A program made the translations under genes and the position numbers. DNA of 29,570 nt from IMG/VR virus record IMGVR_UViG_2778261297_000001. One strand, 5' to 3'. Below the pieces are notes generated by a model. It saw only the letters and a list, made by a program, of their open reading frames with translations. It was not told the origin of the DNA and did no database searches. Positions 3,809-25,195 of the stretch are shown piece after piece (positions within the stretch are counted from its first letter, which is position 1; every line of letters begins with the position of its first letter). The DNA comes from a virus. Its lineage: Duplodnaviria; Heunggongvirae; Uroviricota; Caudoviricetes.

Positions 3809-6798
<2,990 letters not shown>

Positions 6799-9086: not shown

Positions 9087-9431
9087 GATGGTGTTAACTC
9101 CAGTCATCGCTGGCACTACCACTGCTGGTTCAGAGTTAAAAAAACTATGATTTTTTTCATGATGTTACCGTAGTATGTGAGTATCCATCGAATAGACACC
9201 AAGCAAAAAAGCTCCCGAAGGAGCCTTCATTTTCACTTTTTTAAATCCAACGACAGACGGCTGGCATTTAAGTATTGTGAAATATTATCAAATGTAATCA
9301 TCATTGATTTACAAAAGATACATTTTGCCCCGAAAGGATTCATGTCAGAAACATCAAAAGATGATGTTCTATACTGGGAACCATGACAACACGGGCATCT
9401 AAAGTGAATATGGTTTGTAATATTGTCTACC

Positions 9432-9644
9432 TCAAAGCGCCACTACATGAACAGCGGCAGGACCTTTAGGTCCGTTCTCAATACCAAATTCAACTTCCTG
9501 ATTCTCAGTTAATGTTTTGAAATCGTTGCTCTGAATTGCTGAGAAATGGACAAACACATCTTTGCTGCCATCTTTCGGCGTGATGAAACCAAAACCTTTT
9601 TCAGGGTTAAACCATTTCACTAAACCAGTCATTTTGTTAGACAT
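9432..9644 (-). CDS. cspI: Cold shock protein CspI (70 aa)
   Basis: CspA-family cold shock domain with RNP motifs KGFGFI and VFVHF; sequence recalled as CspI. Confidence 0.9.
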
Positions 9645-10005
9645 AATTATTACCTTTTGAAGAAATTAGCCCTTGGGCAGAATGGTCCGAAAAAAATATC
9701 AGAGAGAAAAACCAACAAGGAAATCTCAAGAGGTACAAATAATAAAATTATAACAATGACTGCTTCAGATAAATTTGTAACAAACCAGAACACCATTAAC
9801 GCATGATTAACCACCCATAGCAAGGATTACTTTTGTAAAGAAAAACACAGCAATGAAAGAATAGCTTTATTTATTAATAAAACGTGTCATTCTGATTAAG
9901 ACCTTTTATCTTACCCTTAAGATTTCAGGAATTTTGGCTCATGGAAGAGTCCTTTTTATTTAAATTTTACATTCCGCGATGTAAATGTTCCGATTTAATA
10001 TTACC

Positions 10006-11813: not shown

Positions 11814-12536
11814 CTAAGAAAATCTTGATAAATATTGGTGCGGAGGCACACCAAAATATCCTCTAAAAACACTTACAAAATATGATGCATTGTCATACCC
11901 GCATATTCCCGCCACCTTGCCGACAGTATGGTTACTGTAGATCAATAATCTTTGCGCCATCATCATTCGTTCTTCAAGAATTAATTTACTAAACGATAAT
12001 CCTTCGTCTTTTAATTTTCTTTTTAACAAACTCTCGCTCATATATAATCTTGAAGATATATCACAAAGTCTCCATGACGCTGAGATATCCGAGTGAATAA
12101 TAGCCTTAACTTTACAACCTAAGCTATTAAGACTTCCGAACAAAAAACTTTGCACTATTTTCTCTGAAGATAAGACAGCAAGACATGCAAGTGATATTTG
12201 ATTTCTAACTACATCCACGGTTTTGCTATCACAATTCAAGCATGCAACCAAGTTCTTTAACAATGAAAAATCTTCACATTCTACTATCAAGTATGACGGA
12301 TAAAACCTTCTTACAGAAAAAGGTGAGAGTGTGTAGTTTTTAAAGAAATCATTAACTGTTTTCTCCTCAACATCTACGATCATTAGATGATCTGTATTTG
12401 ACGAAAAAAGATCTTTTAAATTGTATTCAATGAGAACAGCATTTCCTTTTTTAAACAAAATATCTTCTTTACCAATTCGGACACCAAACGAGTTCAACAC
12501 CAAAATGATAGAACATATGTATGGCATATTATCCAC
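11814..12536 (-). CDS. AraC/XylS-family transcriptional regulator (240 aa), prophage moron
   Basis: C-terminal AraC-type HTH signature (..GKVAGICGYDNASYFVSVFRGYFGVPPHQYL); AT-rich gene between late promoter and holin. Confidence 0.8.
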   Translation of the reverse strand: MDNMPYICSIILVLNSFGVRIGKEDILFKKGNAVLIEYNLKDLFSSNTDHLMIVDVEEKTVNDFFKNYTLSPFSVRRFYPSYLIVECEDFSLLKNLVACLNCDSKTVDVVRNQISLACLAVLSSEKIVQSFLFGSLNSLGCKVKAIIHSDISASWRLCDISSRLYMSESLLKRKLKDEGLSFSKLILEERMMMAQRLLIYSNHTVGKVAGICGYDNASYFVSVFRGYFGVPPHQYLSRFS

Positions 12537-16556: not shown

Positions 16557-16808
16557 TTATTCTTCTGAAAAAGCAGAAAAGCCAGCTTTTATTCCGATCT
16601 CTTTCAATGCCTGTAATGAAGTGACAAACTCACCGTCGCGCAAGATAAATCCGTCCGTCACTCGGGCATCCACATAATTAATTAACGCAGCCCCATTTTT
16701 TTGCAAACACACAATGCGGTAATGACTAGCAATATTTCCATTTTCAACGCACACAGCATAGAGGCCATCTTCACAAAAAATTTTACGCAGTTCTTCGATG
16801 TTCATCAT
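16557..16808 (-). CDS. rem: Rem-like small protein (83 aa), function unknown
   Basis: 83-aa ORF MMNIEELRKIFCEDGLYAVCVENGNIASHYRIV..; position downstream of hokD as in Qin. Confidence 0.55.
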   Translation of the reverse strand: MMNIEELRKIFCEDGLYAVCVENGNIASHYRIVCLQKNGAALINYVDARVTDGFILRDGEFVTSLQALKEIGIKAGFSAFSEE

Positions 16809-16954: not shown

Positions 16955-17024
16955 TTAAGTGCGGGTGCGTTGAGGATGCCTGCCACATCAGAGGTGGCGA
17001 GGGATTTCTCACTCGCCGAGTCTC

Positions 17025-17180
17025 TTACTCCTCAGGTTCGTAAGCTGTGAAGACAGCGACCTCCGTCTGGCCGGTTCGGATTCGTACCTCGCAGAGGTCT
17101 TTCCTCGTTACCAGTGCCGTCACTATGACGGTTAAACAGATGACGATCAGGGCGATTAACATCGCCTTTTGCTGCTTCAT
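17025..17180 (-). CDS. hokD: Hok-family membrane toxin HokD/RelF (51 aa)
   Basis: Manual translation MKQQKAMLIALIVICLTVIVTALVTRKDLCEVRIRTGQTEVAVFTAYEPEE; below ORF track threshold. Confidence 0.85.
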   Translation of the reverse strand: MKQQKAMLIALIVICLTVIVTALVTRKDLCEVRIRTGQTEVAVFTAYEPEE

Positions 17181-17251
17181 AGCCTGCTTCTCCTGTCAAC
17201 GCAAAGCAGAAGTGTCACCTTCGGTGCGAAACAGAGATGTCATGCTTTGGT

Positions 17252-17539
17252 TCAGAGAATGCGTTTGACCGCCTCGCTATATACTTCCGAGCGTTCTCTT
17301 TTCCCAACAGAAATCACGAAAACGACAACTTTCTCGTCTATAACCTGGTATACAAGGCGATAGCCTGAAGACCGGAGCTTAATCTTGTAACAATCAGGCA
17401 TACCACGGAGCTTGTTTGCTTCAATCCGGGGTGACTCAAGTACTTCAACCAGCTTCTTTTTCAACTGTTCACGTACCGTCGAGCCCAGCTTTCGCCATTC
17501 CTTTAGTGCCCGCTCGTCAAAATCCAGAAAATACGCCAT
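17252..17539 (-). CDS. relE: RelE mRNA interferase toxin (95 aa)
   Basis: Full-length match from memory to RelE (MAYFLDFDERALKEWRKLGSTVREQLKKKLVEVL..). Confidence 0.92.
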   Translation of the reverse strand: MAYFLDFDERALKEWRKLGSTVREQLKKKLVEVLESPRIEANKLRGMPDCYKIKLRSSGYRLVYQVIDEKVVVFVISVGKRERSEVYSEAVKRIL

Positions 17540-17778
17540 CAGAGTTCATCCAGCGTCACACGTACTGGCTTAGGATTACGAAGCCGTTCTTTCACTATCT
17601 CCACAAGTTCAGCATCTTCATCACTCAGGAGTGTCTGTTTGAACGGCAAGCGTTCATTGTCAGCGATATACTCGAGCATGAGACGAAGCGCTTCAGAAGG
17701 AGTTACACCCATTTTTTCAAGCGCGGCGTAAGAACGCGCTTTAAGTTCATCGTCAATACGCAGGTTAATGCTACCCAT
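17539..17778 (-). CDS. relB: RelB antitoxin (79 aa)
   Basis: Full-length match from memory to RelB; stop overlaps relE start. Confidence 0.92.
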   Translation of the reverse strand: MGSINLRIDDELKARSYAALEKMGVTPSEALRLMLEYIADNERLPFKQTLLSDEDAELVEIVKERLRNPKPVRVTLDEL

Positions 17779-17784
17779 GTCTTA

Positions 17785-17820
17785 CACCTCTTGTAATTAC
17801 AAATGTCATTACAAGTATCG
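17785..17820 (-). promoter_or_regulatory. relBE promoter/operator region (relO) with TTGTAATTACAA-type inverted repeats
   Basis: Palindrome TTGTAATTACAA at 17791-17802 and related ATGTCATTACAAG at 17803-17815 directly upstream of relB start. Confidence 0.6.
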
Positions 17821-18108
17821 CACTACAACATGCTTAGGGCAAGTCACGAAGGAAGTCAGAAAGTAGTCGTAAGAACGGTGATCACTGTCCGCTTTCTGCC
17901 AGGAGCAGCCATTGCTAAGTCCATCCTGTATTGTGCAGGTCAGCTCGTTTTTAAAGAGTCCGGCCATCATCTTACTGGTACAGACACCATATACTTTGTG
18001 ACGGTCAGGCTACATATGCACAACTCAACTTATTCATCTATTTTTTGCTTTAGCATGTCAGTGTTGCTTTCTCGTCGGCGGGTGAGCGGTGACCTGACCT
18101 GTCGATAA
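17803..18108 (+). CDS. YdfV-like hypothetical protein (101 aa); may not be a real gene
   Basis: ORF of the expected length at the expected position between relB and flxA; no recognizable domain; overlaps relBE operator. Confidence 0.3.
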   Translation: MSLQVSHYNMLRASHEGSQKVVVRTVITVRFLPGAAIAKSILYCAGQLVFKESGHHLTGTDTIYFVTVRLHMHNSTYSSIFCFSMSVLLSRRRVSGDLTCR

Positions 18109-18260
18109 AGGAACGTAACACGTTTTATGCAACACCCGCATGCGGCAGAAAATTATTGCCGAACGTTTACCCCTGTCAACAAGCTTTACTTTCTGAGGCG
18201 CGCCAGCCCGCGAGGAAAACAATCTGAACATCAAACAATTAATGACACAAGAAATACGAT

Positions 18261-18287
18261 TAAAGATTTTTTTGTTCATGCCGATAG
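18261..18287 (+). promoter_or_regulatory. Sigma-28 (FliA) class III flagellar promoter of flxA
   Basis: TAAAGATT - 11 nt - GCCGATAG matches FliA consensus TAAAGTTT-N11-GCCGATAA; 24 nt upstream of flxA ATG with AGGAGA RBS. Confidence 0.7.
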
Positions 18288-18310
18288 TGCTTTTTTAAAA
18301 GGAGAAATCT

Positions 18311-18643
18311 ATGTCTGTCACAATTCAGGGAAATACCTCAACCGTTATTTCAAACAACTCCGCCCCGGAAGGAACATCAGAAATAGCCAAAATCACAAGA
18401 CAAATTCAGGTGCTGACTGAAAAGCTTGGGAAAATCTCATCGGAAGAGGGGATGACGACACAGCAGAAAAAAGAAATGGCTGCATTGGTACAGAAGCAAA
18501 TTGAAAGCCTCTGGGCTCAACTGGAGCAGTTGTTAAGGCAGCAGGCAGAGAAAAAGAATGAAGACGCGACAGTTCAGCCTGATAAAAAAGAAGAGAAAAA
18601 AGACGATACAAATACCGCTGGCACCATTGATATTTACGTCTAA
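18311..18643 (+). CDS. flxA: FlxA (FliA-regulated protein, 110 aa)
   Basis: Translation MSVTIQGNTSTVISNNSAPEGTSEIAKITRQIQVLTEKL.. recalled as FlxA. Confidence 0.85.
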   Translation: MSVTIQGNTSTVISNNSAPEGTSEIAKITRQIQVLTEKLGKISSEEGMTTQQKKEMAALVQKQIESLWAQLEQLLRQQAEKKNEDATVQPDKKEEKKDDTNTAGTIDIYV

Positions 18644-18657
18644 GTGACAGCCGTATT

Positions 18658-18682
18658 GTGGCCCTCATCGGGCCACTTTTCG
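18658..18682 (+). terminator. Rho-independent terminator of flxA
   Basis: Hairpin GTGGCCC-TCATC-GGGCCAC followed by TTTTCG, 15 nt after flxA stop. Confidence 0.6.
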
Positions 18683-19079
18683 CCATCAGCCTTTTCTTTA
18701 AAGACATATTATCTTTGTATCATTTCTGATAGTTAACATTACAAGATATAAGTAATGGACGCACTCCCAATTAGTCTATTTAAATCGCCACGAGTTTAAC
18801 TGACAACCCATGATCAATTATGAATTGCAACTATTTCTGTAGTCACTTTTGTGGGGACAGTCCACAAAACTGCCAACTTCCGCTTCTTGCTCTTAGCGGA
18901 CATTAGCATAGGCTATTTACCATAACGCCTCATTACGCGCACCGCCCAGACTGACTCAGCGCGTTTCTGGCATATCCCCGGTAAAACAAGTAACAAACCA
19001 CCCGAAAATGAACACCAGAAACGCGACTTAAGAATCTACCCTATGAATGGATATGCACTCAACCGAATCGATCTTGGTT

Positions 19080-20009
19080 TCAATCTTTTTTATCGGGATC
19101 AGGCTTCTTTTTAGGTAACTTCGGGGGCTTAACTTGCTGATGACTTTGCGTTCGGCGCGTAAGCCAGGGATGGTCAGCTTTAGGTTTAACATAGTATTTT
19201 GAGCGTAAATCAATACGGGCATTATCCACTCGTTCATGGACACTCTTTTCATCATCCAGTGGTATAGGCTCCGGGCCATCAACATACTTTTCCCAGCCCA
19301 GCGCTTTCCCGTCATACAGAACGTTAATTTCACCGTCAAAGTTCTCGCATACAGTAACAACCGAATGCCTAAGTCGATATCCCCGGCTCTCACTGCGTAC
19401 CTGAAACGCACTGCTTTTGTACTGGAAAGTGAGATTTTTAGACAGAACGCGCTTCGCCTGTAGGCTGAAGATATAACCCAGTTCCTCTTCAGAATGGTGC
19501 ACATCAAGATGAGCATTATCAGTAGTACGAGGCGACGTAGCGAACCGGTTGTTATAGGCTTCAATAAAAGTCGGCAACCATGCATTTGCTGTTTCAATAT
19601 CACTGATATTCTGAAGCCGCATTTCTTTGACCAGCCTGTCCTGTAGTGTCTGATTGGCGCGCTCTACCCGCCCTTTTGCCTGCGGGCTGTTGGCATGGAT
19701 TGGCTCGATGCCCAGTGTCTTTATCGCACGAGTGAACTGGGTCAGCTCACCTTCCCGCTCTGGGTTATTTACCCTGAATATACTGTGTCTATCAGAGTAG
19801 AGAGCGAGCGGTACGCCATGATCATTAAGGTAACCCCGGAGGGTTTCCATGTAAGCCCGGGTTGTTTCAGCAGGCACAAAACGCAACGCCATCAACGCAC
19901 TGGTGGCATCATCAATGAAAACGATCAGTGTACATCTGGGGCCTCGATTTTCAAACCAGTCATGAGGTGAGCCATCAATCTGGATCAGTTCACCGTAAGA
20001 TGGTTGATC
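19080..20009 (-). pseudogene. rve (DDE integrase-core) family transposase/integrase fragment, N-terminally truncated
   Basis: DDE signature ..IQIDGSPHDWF.., ..LALYSDRHSIF.., ..SPQAKGRVERANQTLQDRL..; reading frame extends upstream of annotated Met to a stop at 20010-20012 with no HTH domain; GC-richer than flanking prophage DNA. Confidence 0.7.
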
Positions 20010-20386
20010 TTACCCAGCAATAGTGGACACGCGGCTACCCGCGTTAGTAGCTAATCAACAAAGCTAAGGTTAGTAATTAAGGAGTTCTCCACGGGTGAGG
20101 TGGAGTGCGTGCGCCGGACACGGGTGAGCATCCGGCACTGACAGTTTACTGAAAGGATATTTCCCTGAAAAGTCAGACCATAACGCGAAAGCGCACGGCG
20201 AGGTAGCTGGTTCATAGATAGCCTGTCGTTAAATTTTCGTCGACCGTGCGCTTCCGGTTGTGGCAACCCGCGAAATGGCGCGGCGGTAAGTATGGCGGGG
20301 TTATTCCTTCCCCGTTGAGGACACCGGGTTGTCAGGTTGACCATACGCTTAAGTGACAACCCCGCTGCAACGCCCTCTGTTATCAA

Positions 20387-20444
20387 TTTTCTGGTGACGT
20401 TTGGCGGTATCAGTTTTACTCCGTGACTGCTCTGCCGCCCTTTT
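20387..20444 (+). ncRNA. dicF: DicF small regulatory RNA (about 53 nt plus terminator U-tail)
   Basis: Sequence TTTCTGGTGACGTTTGGCGGTATCAGTTTTACTCCGTGACTGCTCTGCCGCCCTTTTT matches DicF from memory, including the UUUCUGGUGACG seed and intrinsic terminator. Confidence 0.75.
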
Positions 20445-20614
20445 TAAAGTGAATTTTGTGATGTGGTGAATGCGGCTGAGCGCACGCGGAACAGTTAAAA
20501 CCAAAAACAGTGTTATGGGTGGATTCTCTGTATCCGGCGTTAATTGTTAACTGGTTAACGTCACCTGGAGGCACCAGGCACTGCATCACAAAATTCATTG
20601 TTGAGGACGCGATA

Positions 20615-20803
20615 ATGAAAACGTTATTACCAAACGTTAATACGTCTGAAGGTTGTTTTGAAATTGGTGTCACTATCAGTAACCCAGTATTTACTGAAGA
20701 TGCCATTAACAAGAGAAAACAAGAACGGGAGCTATTAAATAAAATATGCATTGTTTCAATGCTGGCTCGTTTACGTCTGATGCCAAAAGGATGTGCACAA
20801 TGA
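20615..20803 (+). CDS. dicB: Cell division inhibitor DicB (62 aa)
   Basis: Internal Met of ORF gives MKTLLPNVNTSEGCFEIGVTISNPVFTEDAINKRKQERELLNKICIVSMLARLRLMPKGCAQ; GAGGA RBS upstream. Confidence 0.75.
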   Translation: MKTLLPNVNTSEGCFEIGVTISNPVFTEDAINKRKQERELLNKICIVSMLARLRLMPKGCAQ

Positions 20804-20991
20804 ATTCAGCATTTGTGCTTGTTCTGACAGTTTTTCTTGTTTCCGGAGAGCCAGTTGATATTGCAGTCAGTGTGCACAGGACAATGCAGGAGTGTATGAC
20901 TGCAGCAACCGAACAGAAAATTCCCGGTAACTGTTACCCGGTCGATAAAGTTATTCACCAGGATAATATCGAAATCCCGGCAGGTCTTTAA
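20800..20991 (+). CDS. ydfD: YdfD small membrane lysis protein (63 aa)
   Basis: MNSAFVLVLTVFLVSGEPVDIAVSVHRTMQECMTAATEQK..; start overlaps dicB stop (ATGA), N-terminal TM helix. Confidence 0.7.
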   Translation: MNSAFVLVLTVFLVSGEPVDIAVSVHRTMQECMTAATEQKIPGNCYPVDKVIHQDNIEIPAGL

Positions 20992-21084
20992 AACAGTTCC
21001 GTAATAAATATCCGGTTTCATTCTTATATGCCAGCAATGGCAGGGATTTGTTCATCCTTAAATCTGTCATGAGGTTAAAACAAA

Positions 21085-23556
21085 ATGAGTAAAGTCTTTA
21101 TTTGCGCCGCTATTCCTGACGAACTGGCAACAAGGGAAGAAGGCGCTGTGGCTGTAGCCACAGCCATTGAAGCTGGCGACGAACGCCGTGCTCGAGCAAA
21201 ATTTCACTGGCAGTTCCTGGAACATTATCCGGCTGCTCAGGACTGCGCTTATAAATTTATTGTCTGCGAGGATAAACCTGGCATACCCCGCCCTGCCCTC
21301 GATTCATGGGATGCTGAATATATGCAGGAAAACCGCTGGGATGAGGAGTCTGCTTCTTTTGTCCCGGTTGAGACTGAATCCGATCCGATGAACGTCACTT
21401 TTGACAAGCTGGCCCCTGAAGTACAGAACGCTGTCATGGTTAAGTTCGACACATGTGAAAACATCACCGTTGATATGGTTATTAGCGCACAGGAATTGTT
21501 GCAGGAAGACATGGCAACATTCGACGGACATATCGTTGAAGCGTTGATGAAAATGCCAGAAGTTAACGCCATGTATCCGGAGCTTAAGTTGCACGCCATT
21601 GGGTGGGTTAAGCATAAATGTATTCCTGGTGCTAAATGGCCCGAAATTCAGGCAGAGATGCGCATCTGGAAAAAACGTCGCGAAGGTGAACGCAAGGAAA
21701 CCGGAAAATACACGTCTGTTGTTGATCTCGCCCGCGCCAGAACCAATCAACAGTACACTGAAAATTCAACAGGAAAAATCAGCCCGGTCATTGCTGCCAT
21801 TCATCGCGAATACAAGCAGACATGGAAAACACTGGATGACGAACTGGCCTACGCTCTCTGGCCTGGTGATGTGGATGCCGGAAACATTGACGGCAGCATC
21901 CATCGCTGGGCAAAAAAAGAAGTTATCGACAACGACCGCGAAGACTGGAAGCGTATCTCGGCATCAATGCGCAAACAGCCTGATGCCCTTCGCTACGACC
22001 GCCAGACTATTTTTGGCCTTGTCCGTGAGCGTCCGATCGACATTCACAAAGATCCCATAGCACTGAACAAATATATCTGCGAATACCTGACGACAAAGGG
22101 CGTGTTTGAGAATGAAGAAACAGACCTGGGCACTGTTGATGTTCTCCAGTCATCAGAAACACAAACTGATGCAGTGGAAACTGAGGTATCTGATATCCCA
22201 AAAAATGAAACCGCGCCGGAAGCTGAACCATCTGTAGAGCGTGAGGGGCCGTTCTATTTCCTCTTCGCAGATAAGGACGGAGAAAAATACGGTCGCGCAA
22301 ACAAACTTTCTGGTCTGGATAAGGCACTGGCTGCTGGCGCCACTGAAATCACAAAAGAAGAATATTTTGCCCGAAAAAATGGCACATACACGGGCTTACC
22401 GCAAAATGTAGATACCGCTGAAGATTCAGAACAACCAGAGCCGATAAAAGTTACCGCTGACGAAGTAAACAAAATTATGCAGGCAGCCAATATCAGCCAG
22501 CCTGACGCCGATAAGTTGCTTGCTGCATCACGTGGTGAATTTGTTGAAGGGATTAGTGACCCGAATGATCCGAAATGGGTTAAGGGGATCCAGACCCGCG
22601 ATTCTGTGAACCAGAACCAGCATGAATCGGAACGGAACTACCAAAAAGCGGAACAAAACAGCACAAATGCGTTACAAAACGAGCCAGAAACGAAACAGCC
22701 TGAACCAGTGGCGCAACTGGAAGTGGAAAAAGTCTGCACCGCCTGCGGTCAGACCGGCGGCGGCAACTGCCCTGATTGTGGCGCGGTGATGGGCGACGCA
22801 ACATACCAGGAAACATTCGATGAAGAGTATCAGGTTGAAGTTCAGGAAGATGATCTGGAGGAAATGGAAGGCGCTGAACATCCACACAAGGAGAACACTG
22901 GCGGCAATCAGCATCACAATAGCGATAATGAAACTGGCGAGACGGCAGATCACTCAATTAAGGTGAACGGTCATCACGAAATCACATCCACCAGCAGGAC
23001 GTGTGACCATCTAATGATCGACCTTGAAACCATGGGAAAAAATCCTGATGCCCCGATCATCTCAATAGGTGCAATATTTTTCGATCCGCAAACCGGAGAT
23101 ATGGGACCGGAATTTAGTAAGACTATCGATCTGGAAACTGCTGGCGGAGTCATTGATCGGGACACCATTAAATGGTGGCTTAAGCAATCACGCGAAGCGC
23201 AATCTGCCATTATGACCGATGAAATCCCGTTAGATGATGCACTGTTACAATTGCGGGAATTTATCGACGAAAACTCCGGTGAATTTTTTGTTCAGGTTTG
23301 GGGAAATGGAGCCAACTTCGACAACACGATTTTGCGCCGTTCATACGAACGGCAGGGGATCCCCTGCCCGTGGCGTTACTACAACGATCGCGATGTACGC
23401 ACAATCGTTGAGCTGGGGAAAGCCATAGACTTCGATGCCAGAACGGCTATTCCATTCGAAGGTGAGCGCCATAATGCACTTGATGACGCCCGTTACCAGG
23501 CAAAATACGTTTCAGTTATCTGGCAAAAACTGATCCCGAGTCAGGCTGATTCTTAA
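21085..23556 (+). CDS. RecE-like (exodeoxyribonuclease VIII-like N-terminal/middle region) protein with Zn ribbon and C-terminal DEDDh 3'-5' exonuclease domain, 823 aa
   Basis: Middle segment DADKLLAASRGEFVEGISDPNDPKWVKGIQTRD recalled from Rac RecE; CTACGQTGGGNCPDCG zinc ribbon; C-terminal motifs IDLETMG (Exo I), WGNGANFDNTIL (Exo II), HNALDDARYQ (Exo III). Confidence 0.8.
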   Translation: MSKVFICAAIPDELATREEGAVAVATAIEAGDERRARAKFHWQFLEHYPAAQDCAYKFIVCEDKPGIPRPALDSWDAEYMQENRWDEESASFVPVETESDPMNVTFDKLAPEVQNAVMVKFDTCENITVDMVISAQELLQEDMATFDGHIVEALMKMPEVNAMYPELKLHAIGWVKHKCIPGAKWPEIQAEMRIWKKRREGERKETGKYTSVVDLARARTNQQYTENSTGKISPVIAAIHREYKQTWKTLDDELAYALWPGDVDAGNIDGSIHRWAKKEVIDNDREDWKRISASMRKQPDALRYDRQTIFGLVRERPIDIHKDPIALNKYICEYLTTKGVFENEETDLGTVDVLQSSETQTDAVETEVSDIPKNETAPEAEPSVEREGPFYFLFADKDGEKYGRANKLSGLDKALAAGATEITKEEYFARKNGTYTGLPQNVDTAEDSEQPEPIKVTADEVNKIMQAANISQPDADKLLAASRGEFVEGISDPNDPKWVKGIQTRDSVNQNQHESERNYQKAEQNSTNALQNEPETKQPEPVAQLEVEKVCTACGQTGGGNCPDCGAVMGDATYQETFDEEYQVEVQEDDLEEMEGAEHPHKENTGGNQHHNSDNETGETADHSIKVNGHHEITSTSRTCDHLMIDLETMGKNPDAPIISIGAIFFDPQTGDMGPEFSKTIDLETAGGVIDRDTIKWWLKQSREAQSAIMTDEIPLDDALLQLREFIDENSGEFFVQVWGNGANFDNTILRRSYERQGIPCPWRYYNDRDVRTIVELGKAIDFDARTAIPFEGERHNALDDARYQAKYVSVIWQKLIPSQADS

Positions 23557-23628
23557 TGTTCAACTGTCGCCGGTTGTGACTGGTATTCTGCAACCGGCGC
23601 TCGTCTAATGTAAGAGATAAAGAAATCG

Positions 23629-23880
23629 ATGAGCGAAGTAATCATGATTGTCTCTCCCGGCAAATGGGTATCCGAAGAGCAGTTAATTGCGCTGAAAGGA
23701 ATAAAAAAAGGTACGTTAAAAAAGGCCCGGGAAAAATCGTTTATGGAAGGAAGGGAATATAAGCATGTCGCTCATGACGGTATGCCATGGGATAACAGCC
23801 CATGCTTTTACAACCTGGAAGAAATTGATCGCTGGATTGAGCGCCAGGCATCAGCGAGACCAAGACGTCATCTTACTTGA
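23629..23880 (+). CDS. Putative excisionase / Xis-like DNA-binding protein (83 aa)
   Basis: Small basic protein immediately upstream of integrase; contains GREY motif as in lambda Xis family; exact start uncertain. Confidence 0.55.
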   Translation: MSEVIMIVSPGKWVSEEQLIALKGIKKGTLKKAREKSFMEGREYKHVAHDGMPWDNSPCFYNLEEIDRWIERQASARPRRHLT

Positions 23881-23899
23881 CTAAAAGCCACACTAACTA

Positions 23900-25195
23900 A
23901 TGAGAGAAGTTGAAATGAAATATCCGACAGGCGTGGAAAACCATGGAGGGAAATTACGTATCTGGTTTGTTTATAAAGGCGTAAGAGTCAGGGAAAATCT
24001 GGGGGTTCCTGACACAGCAAAAAACAGGCGCGTTGCAGGTGAACTACGCGCCTCTGTTTGTTACGCAATAAAAACTGGTGTTTTCGACTATGCAAAACAG
24101 TTTCCCTCCTCACGCAATCTGGAAAAATTTGGTGAGGCCCGACAAGATTTAACCATAAAAGAACTGGCTGAAAAATTTCTGGCACTGAAAGAAACTGAAG
24201 TCGCAAAAACATCACTCAACACATACCGTGCCGTCATCAAAAATATCCTGAGCATAATCGGTGAAAAAAATCTTGCCTCATCGATTAATAAAGAAAAATT
24301 ACTGGAGGTTCGTAAAGAGCTACTGACTGGATACCAGATCCCCAAAAGTAACTATATTGTTACACAACCAGGGAGATCGGCTGTAACTGTAAATAATTAC
24401 ATGACAAATCTTAACGCCGTGTTCCAGTTTGGTGTTGATAACGGTTACTTGGCAGATAACCCGTTTAAGGGGATCTCGCCATTAAAGGAATCAAGAACCA
24501 TTCCGGATCCTCTTTCGCGGGAGGAATTCATCCGTCTTATCGATGCGTGCAGAAATCAGCAAGCCAAAAATTTATGGTGTGTTTCTGTTTATACTGGCGT
24601 TCGCCCTGGTGAGCTGTGTGCACTTGGATGGGAGGACATAGATCTGAAAAATGGAACAATGATGATCAGGAGAAATTTAGCAAAAGACCGTTTCACGGTA
24701 CCAAAAACACAGGCGGGAACCAATCGGGTCATTCATCTTATTAAGCCAGCAATCGACGCTCTCCGGAGTCAGATGACATTAACGAGACTGAGCAAAGAGC
24801 ATATCATTGATGTTCACCTCAGAGAGTATGGCAGAACAGAAAAACAAAAATGCACCTTTGTTTTTCAACCTGAAGTGTCAGCGAGAGTAAAAAATTATGG
24901 TGACCATTTTACCGTTGACTCAATAAGGCAGATGTGGGACGCAGCGATAAAACGTGCCGGACTCCGCCATCGAAAATCATATCAGTCGAGACATACTTAT
25001 GCCTGCTGGTCGCTGACAGCTGGTGCTAACCCGGCATTTATAGCAAACCAGATGGGCCATGCAGATGCGCAAATGGTATTTCAGGTATACGGAAAATGGA
25101 TGTCTGAAAACAATAATGCACAGGTAGCTTTGTTAAATACACAGTTAAGCGAGTTTGCCCCAACCATGCCCCATAACGAAGCAATGAAAAATTAA
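23900..25195 (+). CDS. intQ: Tyrosine site-specific integrase (lambda Int family), apparently intact, 426-431 aa
   Basis: Phage-integrase C-terminal catalytic region (..VYTGVRPGELCALGWEDIDL.., ..RHTYACWSL.., ..QVYGKWM..); 3' end faces att core at 25233; start may be internal Met at 23915. Confidence 0.9.
   Translation: MREVEMKYPTGVENHGGKLRIWFVYKGVRVRENLGVPDTAKNRRVAGELRASVCYAIKTGVFDYAKQFPSSRNLEKFGEARQDLTIKELAEKFLALKETEVAKTSLNTYRAVIKNILSIIGEKNLASSINKEKLLEVRKELLTGYQIPKSNYIVTQPGRSAVTVNNYMTNLNAVFQFGVDNGYLADNPFKGISPLKESRTIPDPLSREEFIRLIDACRNQQAKNLWCVSVYTGVRPGELCALGWEDIDLKNGTMMIRRNLAKDRFTVPKTQAGTNRVIHLIKPAIDALRSQMTLTRLSKEHIIDVHLREYGRTEKQKCTFVFQPEVSARVKNYGDHFTVDSIRQMWDAAIKRAGLRHRKSYQSRHTYACWSLTAGANPAFIANQMGHADAQMVFQVYGKWMSENNNAQVALLNTQLSEFAPTMPHNEAMKN

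Follow-up and report, generated by a model that had tools for sequence, protein, structure and literature searches.

Organization of the dicF-dicB-ydfD locus

The stretch of DNA analysed here, hereafter referred to as the window, comprises 29,570 nucleotides and corresponds to the Qin cryptic prophage of Escherichia coli strain EC09 (NZ_CM169492.1), which is located between ydfJ and rspB. A 7 kb query covering positions 17000-24000 aligned to the EC09 chromosome as a single alignment with 100% identity. Strain EC09 originates from the human gut in Spain, and its chromosome sequence was assembled from whole-genome shotgun data. The features of the locus are listed in Table 1.

Table 1 Features of the EC09 Qin prophage around dicF-dicB-ydfD. 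Positions refer to the window unless the K-12 locus (L004) is named.
Feature	Position	Strand	Remarks
rem, DicA antirepressor	16557-16808	-	Annotation of the identical EC09 record
flxA	18261-18680	+	Nearest + strand transcription unit upstream of dicF
ISEsa1 (IS1202-like, ISNCY family) transposase gene remnant, 740 bp	19265-20004	-	Points away from dicF
IS3 scar, first 33 nt of the left inverted repeat	20005-20037	+	Reads inward; deletion junction
Leader: last 12 bp of ydfC (20036-20047) and complete ydfC-dicF spacer	20036-20387	+	
dicF, small RNA gene, 53 nt	20388-20440	+	53/53 nt same as K-12 dicF
dicB, cell-division inhibitor, 62 aa	20615-20803	+	Protein 100% identical to K-12 DicB
ydfD, lysis protein, 63 aa	20800-20991	+	Protein 100% identical to K-12 YdfD
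3'-5' exonuclease, 823 aa	21085-23556	+	Intact; Rv2179c-like domain at C-terminus (Pfam, annotation)
Excisionase	23629-23880	+	Intact; Pfam DUF1233
Integrase	23915-25195	+	Intact; Pfam Phage_integrase
First motif copy	K-12 locus 4478	+	30 bp upstream of ydfA
Second motif copy	K-12 locus 5031; window 20036-20046	+	End of ydfC, EC09 junction
Third motif copy	K-12 locus 5526; window 20531-20542	+	84 bp upstream of dicB

The Rfam model of DicF (RF00039) matched positions 20389-20440 on the + strand over its whole length (1-52 of 52) at 76.7 bits, the gathering score being 48. The gene includes its own terminator, which is a hairpin GGCGG...CCGCC followed by CTTTTT. DicB matched the Pfam family PF05358 over its full length (positions 1-62 of 62, 136.8 bits, cut-off 27) and YdfD matched DUF1482 (PF07358, 91.1 bits, cut-off 25). 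The stop codon of dicB overlaps the start codon of ydfD in the sequence ATGA. These Rfam and Pfam matches, and the identity of all three genes or proteins with those of K-12, bear out the original prediction that a dicF-dicB-ydfD module is retained; the location given for it was also right, except that a start at 20387 lies one nucleotide too early. DicF is an antisense small RNA that acts on ftsZ and on other mRNAs, DicB is a MinC-dependent inhibitor of cell division that also blocks ManYZ, and YdfD is a lysis protein. The leader upstream of dicF has a predicted folding energy of -150 kcal/mol (z = -2.9), and in K-12 a 190-nt DicF precursor is cut from a structured leader (PMC10448788). The block 20036-21200 (1,165 bp) is 99.6% identical to K-12, with five differences, three of which are in the leader.

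One further place on the EC09 chromosome matches part of segment 20200-20991, which implies a putative second dicF/dicB/ydfD-like copy elsewhere in this strain, presumably in another prophage. Other segments of the window were also noted. The segment 11814-14610, between the gene of the Q antiterminator and the lysis genes, carries an AraC-family regulator, a YbgA-family protein and a lipocalin gene, a cargo that we take not to be expected from the layout of K-12 Qin. An Rfam match to IS009 (221 bits, 3843-4041, - strand) lies within the tail-fibre-assembly/portal pseudogene region 3809-4699, and a match to the cspA thermoregulator (114 bits, 9405-9789, - strand) lies upstream of cspI.

Deletion of the immunity region

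Searches of the whole 29.6-kb window by tblastn gave nothing significant for the K-12 proteins DicA, DicC, YdfX, YdfA, YdfB and YdfC, and PGAP lists none of the six corresponding genes in the EC09 record, the sequence of which is identical. Homology with K-12 breaks at 19264, just after ydfW, and restarts at 20036, 12 bp before the stop codon of ydfC; the K-12 stretch that is missing is NC_000913.3 1,647,359-1,649,029. The absence of dicA and dicC, as claimed originally, is confirmed by both the search and the annotation, but a loss restricted to these two genes is too narrow a description, since the deletion also comprises ydfX, the promoter dicBp with the DicA operators, ydfA, ydfB, and ydfC except for its last 12 bp.

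In place of the missing stretch, the window has a remnant of the ISEsa1 transposase gene followed by a short IS3 sequence. The ISEsa1 remnant, annotated by PGAP as a pseudogene at 19350-19988 and having a weak Pfam rve_3 match, is common to many relatives up to position 20004. The IS3 sequence agrees at 36/36 nt with one terminus of the full-length IS3 carried by another strain (locus L005), and its last two bases, TA, are common with the end of ydfC, forming a 2-nt microhomology. A complete IS3 has two terminal inverted repeats that flank orfA/orfB, over about 1,258 bp; neither a transposase nor a right end of IS3 was found at the junction, and the 33 nt are a scar rather than an element. In strain S3, a different, complete IS3-family element is inserted 1 bp from the start of the EC09 scar (window 20004/20005; 4305-4307 of the S3 locus, L008), and this strain is also deleted into ydfC, of which 66 bp are left. 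The ISEsa1 remnant has been the site of two independent IS3-family insertions, in EC09 and S3, at nearly the same nucleotide.

The EC09 junction (19940-20110) was found in only one of 5,426 complete E. coli genomes. Because the three genes are intact, the 1,165-bp block has a single difference from that of strain GF31, and the junction is unique, the deletion is regarded as recent. The intactness of dicF, dicB and ydfD, which is expected after a recent deletion and which also fits continued selection, is therefore no evidence of selection.

A junction that is seen in one genome, in a chromosome record based on shotgun data and at a repeated element such as IS3, could also be an artefact of the EC09 assembly, the real genome having kept either its immunity region or a complete IS3. 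We give this explanation hardly any credence. A collapsed IS3 would leave both ends of the element, or the same flank on both sides, whereas in the window nucleotide 33 of IS3 abuts the end of ydfC via the 2-nt microhomology, the arrangement expected of a genuine illegitimate deletion. Moreover, independent deletions of a comparable kind are present here in many other complete genomes.

Promoter and operator sequences

In the K-12 locus, dicBp (TTGACC-17-TAATCT, positions 4403-4431 of L004) scored 10.8 bits in a position-weight scan, and it lies inside the stretch that is deleted in EC09. In the K-12 dicA-ydfA interval, dicBp is flanked by operator-like repeats, all of which have been deleted as well. 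The DicA operator Oc, TTGTTAGTCATAACTAACAA, which has been defined by experiment (PMC3441716), had no match in the whole window with up to 3 mismatches. The same was found, over the same range and at the same tolerance, for the generalised operator TTGTTAG-N6-CTAACAA, a form broad enough to include those of the different-immunity allele found in relatives. As a control, the operator search was run on K-12, where both Oc and the dicBp operator were found. A K-12-type dicBF operon controlled by dicA can be described by dicBp upstream of ydfA, by its operators and by the adjacent dicA and dicC; none of the three is found in the window.

A promoter scan of segment 18200-21200 detected no sigma-70 site on the + strand. 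In the position-weight scan of segment 19265-20620, the best + strand candidate was GTGACT-16-TAAAGT at 20423-20450, which sits between the dicF terminator and dicB; its score of 8.4 bits compares with a median shuffle maximum of 9.3 bits. No + strand candidate in this segment scored above the chance level given by shuffled sequences, in consensus scans of a kind that miss weak or non-sigma-70 promoters.

In K-12, DicF and the dicB mRNA both derive from the transcript that starts at dicBp, and primer extension, Northern blots and RT-PCR revealed no promoter within the operon (PMC10448788, Ragunathan et al. 2023). DicA represses dicBp, the activity of which goes up 22-fold on deletion of dicA, and Rem is the antirepressor of DicA (PMC10448788). 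The dicA gene is essential in K-12, which has been linked to the control of DicB and DicF (PMC11481867), and the operon has high toxicity in that strain when it is induced or strongly expressed (PMC5069750).

We consider it likely that dicF-dicB-ydfD is a promoterless remnant that was left after the joint loss of repressor and promoter, in the ordinary decay of a defective prophage. The segment is the distal part of the Qin early-left (dicBF) operon, carrying the same dicF, DicB and YdfD as in K-12. One strain-specific deletion, with the IS3 end as its scar at the junction, took the whole immunity region: the two repressor genes, one cro-like and the other cI-like, then dicBp, a promoter of the PL type, along with the operators, and finally ydfABC. 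As repressor and promoter went together, the module is best read as promoterless, and it is expected to be transcriptionally silent or, at most, to have low DicA-independent expression from internal promoters listed in RegulonDB. EC09 can tolerate the loss of a repressor that is essential in K-12 because dicBp was lost too, which needs no special explanation; with dicBp gone, there is no longer anything paradoxical about a toxic module that has lost its repressor.

The original prediction had left two options, a module that is transcriptionally orphaned or one that is expressed from a different promoter and may be toxic or protective. The first is supported by the deletion of dicBp and its operators, by the lack of a + strand candidate above chance and by the K-12 work that found no internal promoter. 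The second, with new or toxic expression, is without support.

The genes of the exonuclease, the excisionase and the integrase (21085-25195) form the rest of the early-left operon and have lost the same upstream promoter as dicF-dicB-ydfD. The rem gene is intact, yet the target of its product, DicA, and the promoter that rem derepresses are both lost, leaving an orphan regulator.

Other sources of expression and control

Low expression that does not depend on the repressor could come from internal promoters upstream of dicF and dicB and could have been kept as useful, for example through DicB-mediated protection from ManYZ-dependent phages. One promoter ahead of dicF and another ahead of dicB are entered in RegulonDB v12 (cited in PMC11430063), and Cam et al. 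1988, as cited in PMC10448788, suggested a promoter upstream of dicB. Both stretches listed in RegulonDB are kept in the window, in which the leader differs from that of K-12 at three bases only. Since these stretches are kept almost unchanged, any activity would be at about the level of K-12, where it is evidently harmless. The candidate at 20423-20450, between the dicF terminator and dicB, scores below the chance level of shuffled sequences, and the K-12 experiments cited above argue against internal promoters. As for usefulness, induced DicB protects against lambda-type phages (PMC6832061) and all three genes are intact in EC09; however, the intactness is accounted for by a recent deletion, and retention is uneven among close relatives, of which 20AR0354, MEI7BO1-21 and KL53 are without dicF and Res13 has its dicB split by IS3. 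We therefore regard useful low-level expression as improbable.

A considerably weaker case can be made for a new promoter, made or exposed by the deletion in the hybrid of IS3 scar and ISEsa1 or acting by read-through from flxA, which would give constitutive and possibly harmful expression; we find this very unlikely. The junction is a new sequence, unique to EC09, and the ends of IS3-family elements can supply promoter elements. However, only 33 nt of IS3 are left, no -35/-10 pair spanning 19990-20060 is among the top candidates, the promoter scan gave none, and the transposase remnant is antisense to dicF. The promoter of flxA, read from the sequence with the sigma-28 consensus, is of the sigma-28 type, TAAA-N15-GCCGATAG (18261-18287). 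Read-through from flxA into dicF is disfavoured because the flxA stop codon is directly followed by a hairpin and a T-run (18658-18680). Furthermore, constitutive expression is difficult to reconcile with a viable gut isolate, given the toxicity of strong operon expression in K-12 (PMC5069750).

A DicA-like repressor encoded elsewhere in the genome and acting in trans on operator sites of this locus had been named originally as a finding that would refute the proposal. With no operator in the window, a repressor acting in trans would have no binding place here. The sole other HTH protein that was checked, a 240-aa ORF at 11814-12536 on the - strand, is an AraC-family regulator according to Pfam. 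In a search of EC09, the query was K-12 dicC-dicA fused to a bait specific to EC09, which served to raise the rank of this strain; the number of matching places on EC09 fell from 2 to 1 when short matches were excluded, and no K-12-type dicC-dicA DNA was detected elsewhere on the EC09 chromosome at the sensitivity of megablast.

Recurrent deletions at the locus

Loss of dicA with the module kept is not unusual. A previous study of 63 E. coli strains reported 24 without dicA (PMC5992433). The block 20036-20991 (956 bp) is covered to at least 80% in 3,780 of 5,426 complete E. coli genomes, whereas only 764 genomes have a contiguous K-12-type stretch from dicA to dicB. At least 11 other independent variants of the locus are without the repressor or dicBp. 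They include GF31, SCU-118/CPE35, Res13, 20AR0354, S3, YPE10, MEI7BO1-21, 2020CK-00188, KL53 and LR-58-1, in each of which dicBp is lost through a different deletion. In 20AR0354, MEI7BO1-21, 2020CK-00188 and KL53, dicF is also lost, and Res13 has an IS3 inside dicB, so that the variants can be described as a decay series. The GF31-type and SCU-118-type junctions were considered as common ancestral forms and rejected: the former is found in 1 genome and the latter in 2, and because of these counts each deletion is regarded as sporadic.

In 9 of the 12 independent variants, the right-hand endpoint lies no more than a few bases from one of three copies of a motif. The 10-kb K-12 locus contains exactly three copies of this motif, TA[CT]CC-N0-2-GCGTTA, each of them in the operon and on the + strand. 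Endpoints at the first copy (4476-4478 of the K-12 locus) belong to GF31 and SCU-118, those at the second copy belong to EC09 and Res13, and those at the third copy (5520-5526, window 20531) belong to 20AR0354, YPE10, MEI7BO1-21, 2020CK-00188 and KL53. The left-hand endpoints are all different, and mostly only 2-5 nt of microhomology are present; two of the events are recombination over short homology, the partner being a sequence similar to the motif, CTGCTACCCCACTGGCGTT, in the replication-like gene. A shuffle test of the motif is circular, because the motif was derived from the same sites.

That deletions of the Qin early region are non-random, through a sequence-specific break, a one-ended recombination hot spot or a selection filter, is a tentative suggestion to which we assign a low probability. 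One idea is that cryptic recognition of IS3 ends might lie behind the endpoints, the motif resembling the inner IS3 inverted repeat CTACCCACGT. Alternatively, a strong selection filter could act for the joint loss of repressor and promoter while dicB-ydfD is spared; the sampling of variants favoured those that retain dicB-ydfD, and therefore selection cannot be judged from them.

The third motif site (site C) was also considered as a general boundary of lambdoid mosaics and rejected, since 91 of 120 IMG/VR loci had the standard sequence upstream of it and only 2 had truly new left flanks. An 11-nt direct repeat, AAACAGTTCCG, flanks the segment from ydfA to ydfD; chance alone would give about 0.4 repeats of this kind in 1.8 kb. 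A systematic survey of the recurrent deletion endpoints may be worthwhile.

Comparison with K-12 Qin, related prophages and lambda

There is little new biology in this locus, the genes being those known from K-12 and the loss of an immunity region being ordinary prophage decay. It provides a clean natural example of the known rule that an essential prophage repressor can be lost if the promoter that it guards is lost too. It also calls for caution, as the presence of a toxin and the absence of its repressor are no sign of danger or of new regulation before the promoter has been checked.

The window and the Qin prophage of K-12 occupy the same locus, from ydfJ to rspB, and their dicF, DicB and YdfD are identical. 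However, K-12 has ydfX, dicC, dicA, dicBp with its operators, ydfA, ydfB and ydfC, while the window has the ISEsa1 remnant and the IS3 scar. Furthermore, K-12 has the pseudogenes ydfE, insD7 and intQ where the exonuclease, excisionase and integrase of the window are intact.

The closest relatives in structure are the Qin variants of GF31 and BKQWHE. The flanks of GF31 are 99.9% identical to those of EC09. The same integrase protein is found in GF31, BKQWHE and EC09, and the YdfA, YdfB and YdfC proteins shared by GF31 and BKQWHE are lost in EC09. GF31 keeps 3,803 bp that EC09 is without, and it has its own unique deletion, which ends 30 bp upstream of ydfA. BKQWHE has a full early region, composed of DUF977, a replication-like gene, YdaT, a Cro/CI-family gene and a DicA-family repressor. 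In the intact relatives BKQWHE, TUM1887 and MB06021, this DicA-family repressor has 135 aa, is 57% identical to K-12 DicA and is accompanied by its own operators. The 135-aa repressor is seen at positions 6055-6462 and 5876-6283 of two of the loci compared (L009 and L015, respectively), and the operator half-sites TTGTTAG...CTAACAA are conserved. In these relatives, the locus seems to carry a different-immunity allele. Because intact relatives of its lineage carry this repressor, the one lost by EC09 was probably the different-immunity allele.

DicA and DicC have been likened to CI and Cro (PMC10448788). The dicBF operon resembles the PL operon of lambda, in which kil is under the control of CI: in both, a division inhibitor is part of an early-left operon that is silenced by a repressor through operators at the promoter. 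Unlike the lambda PL operon, the window has had both the promoter and the repressor deleted, and no switch is left.
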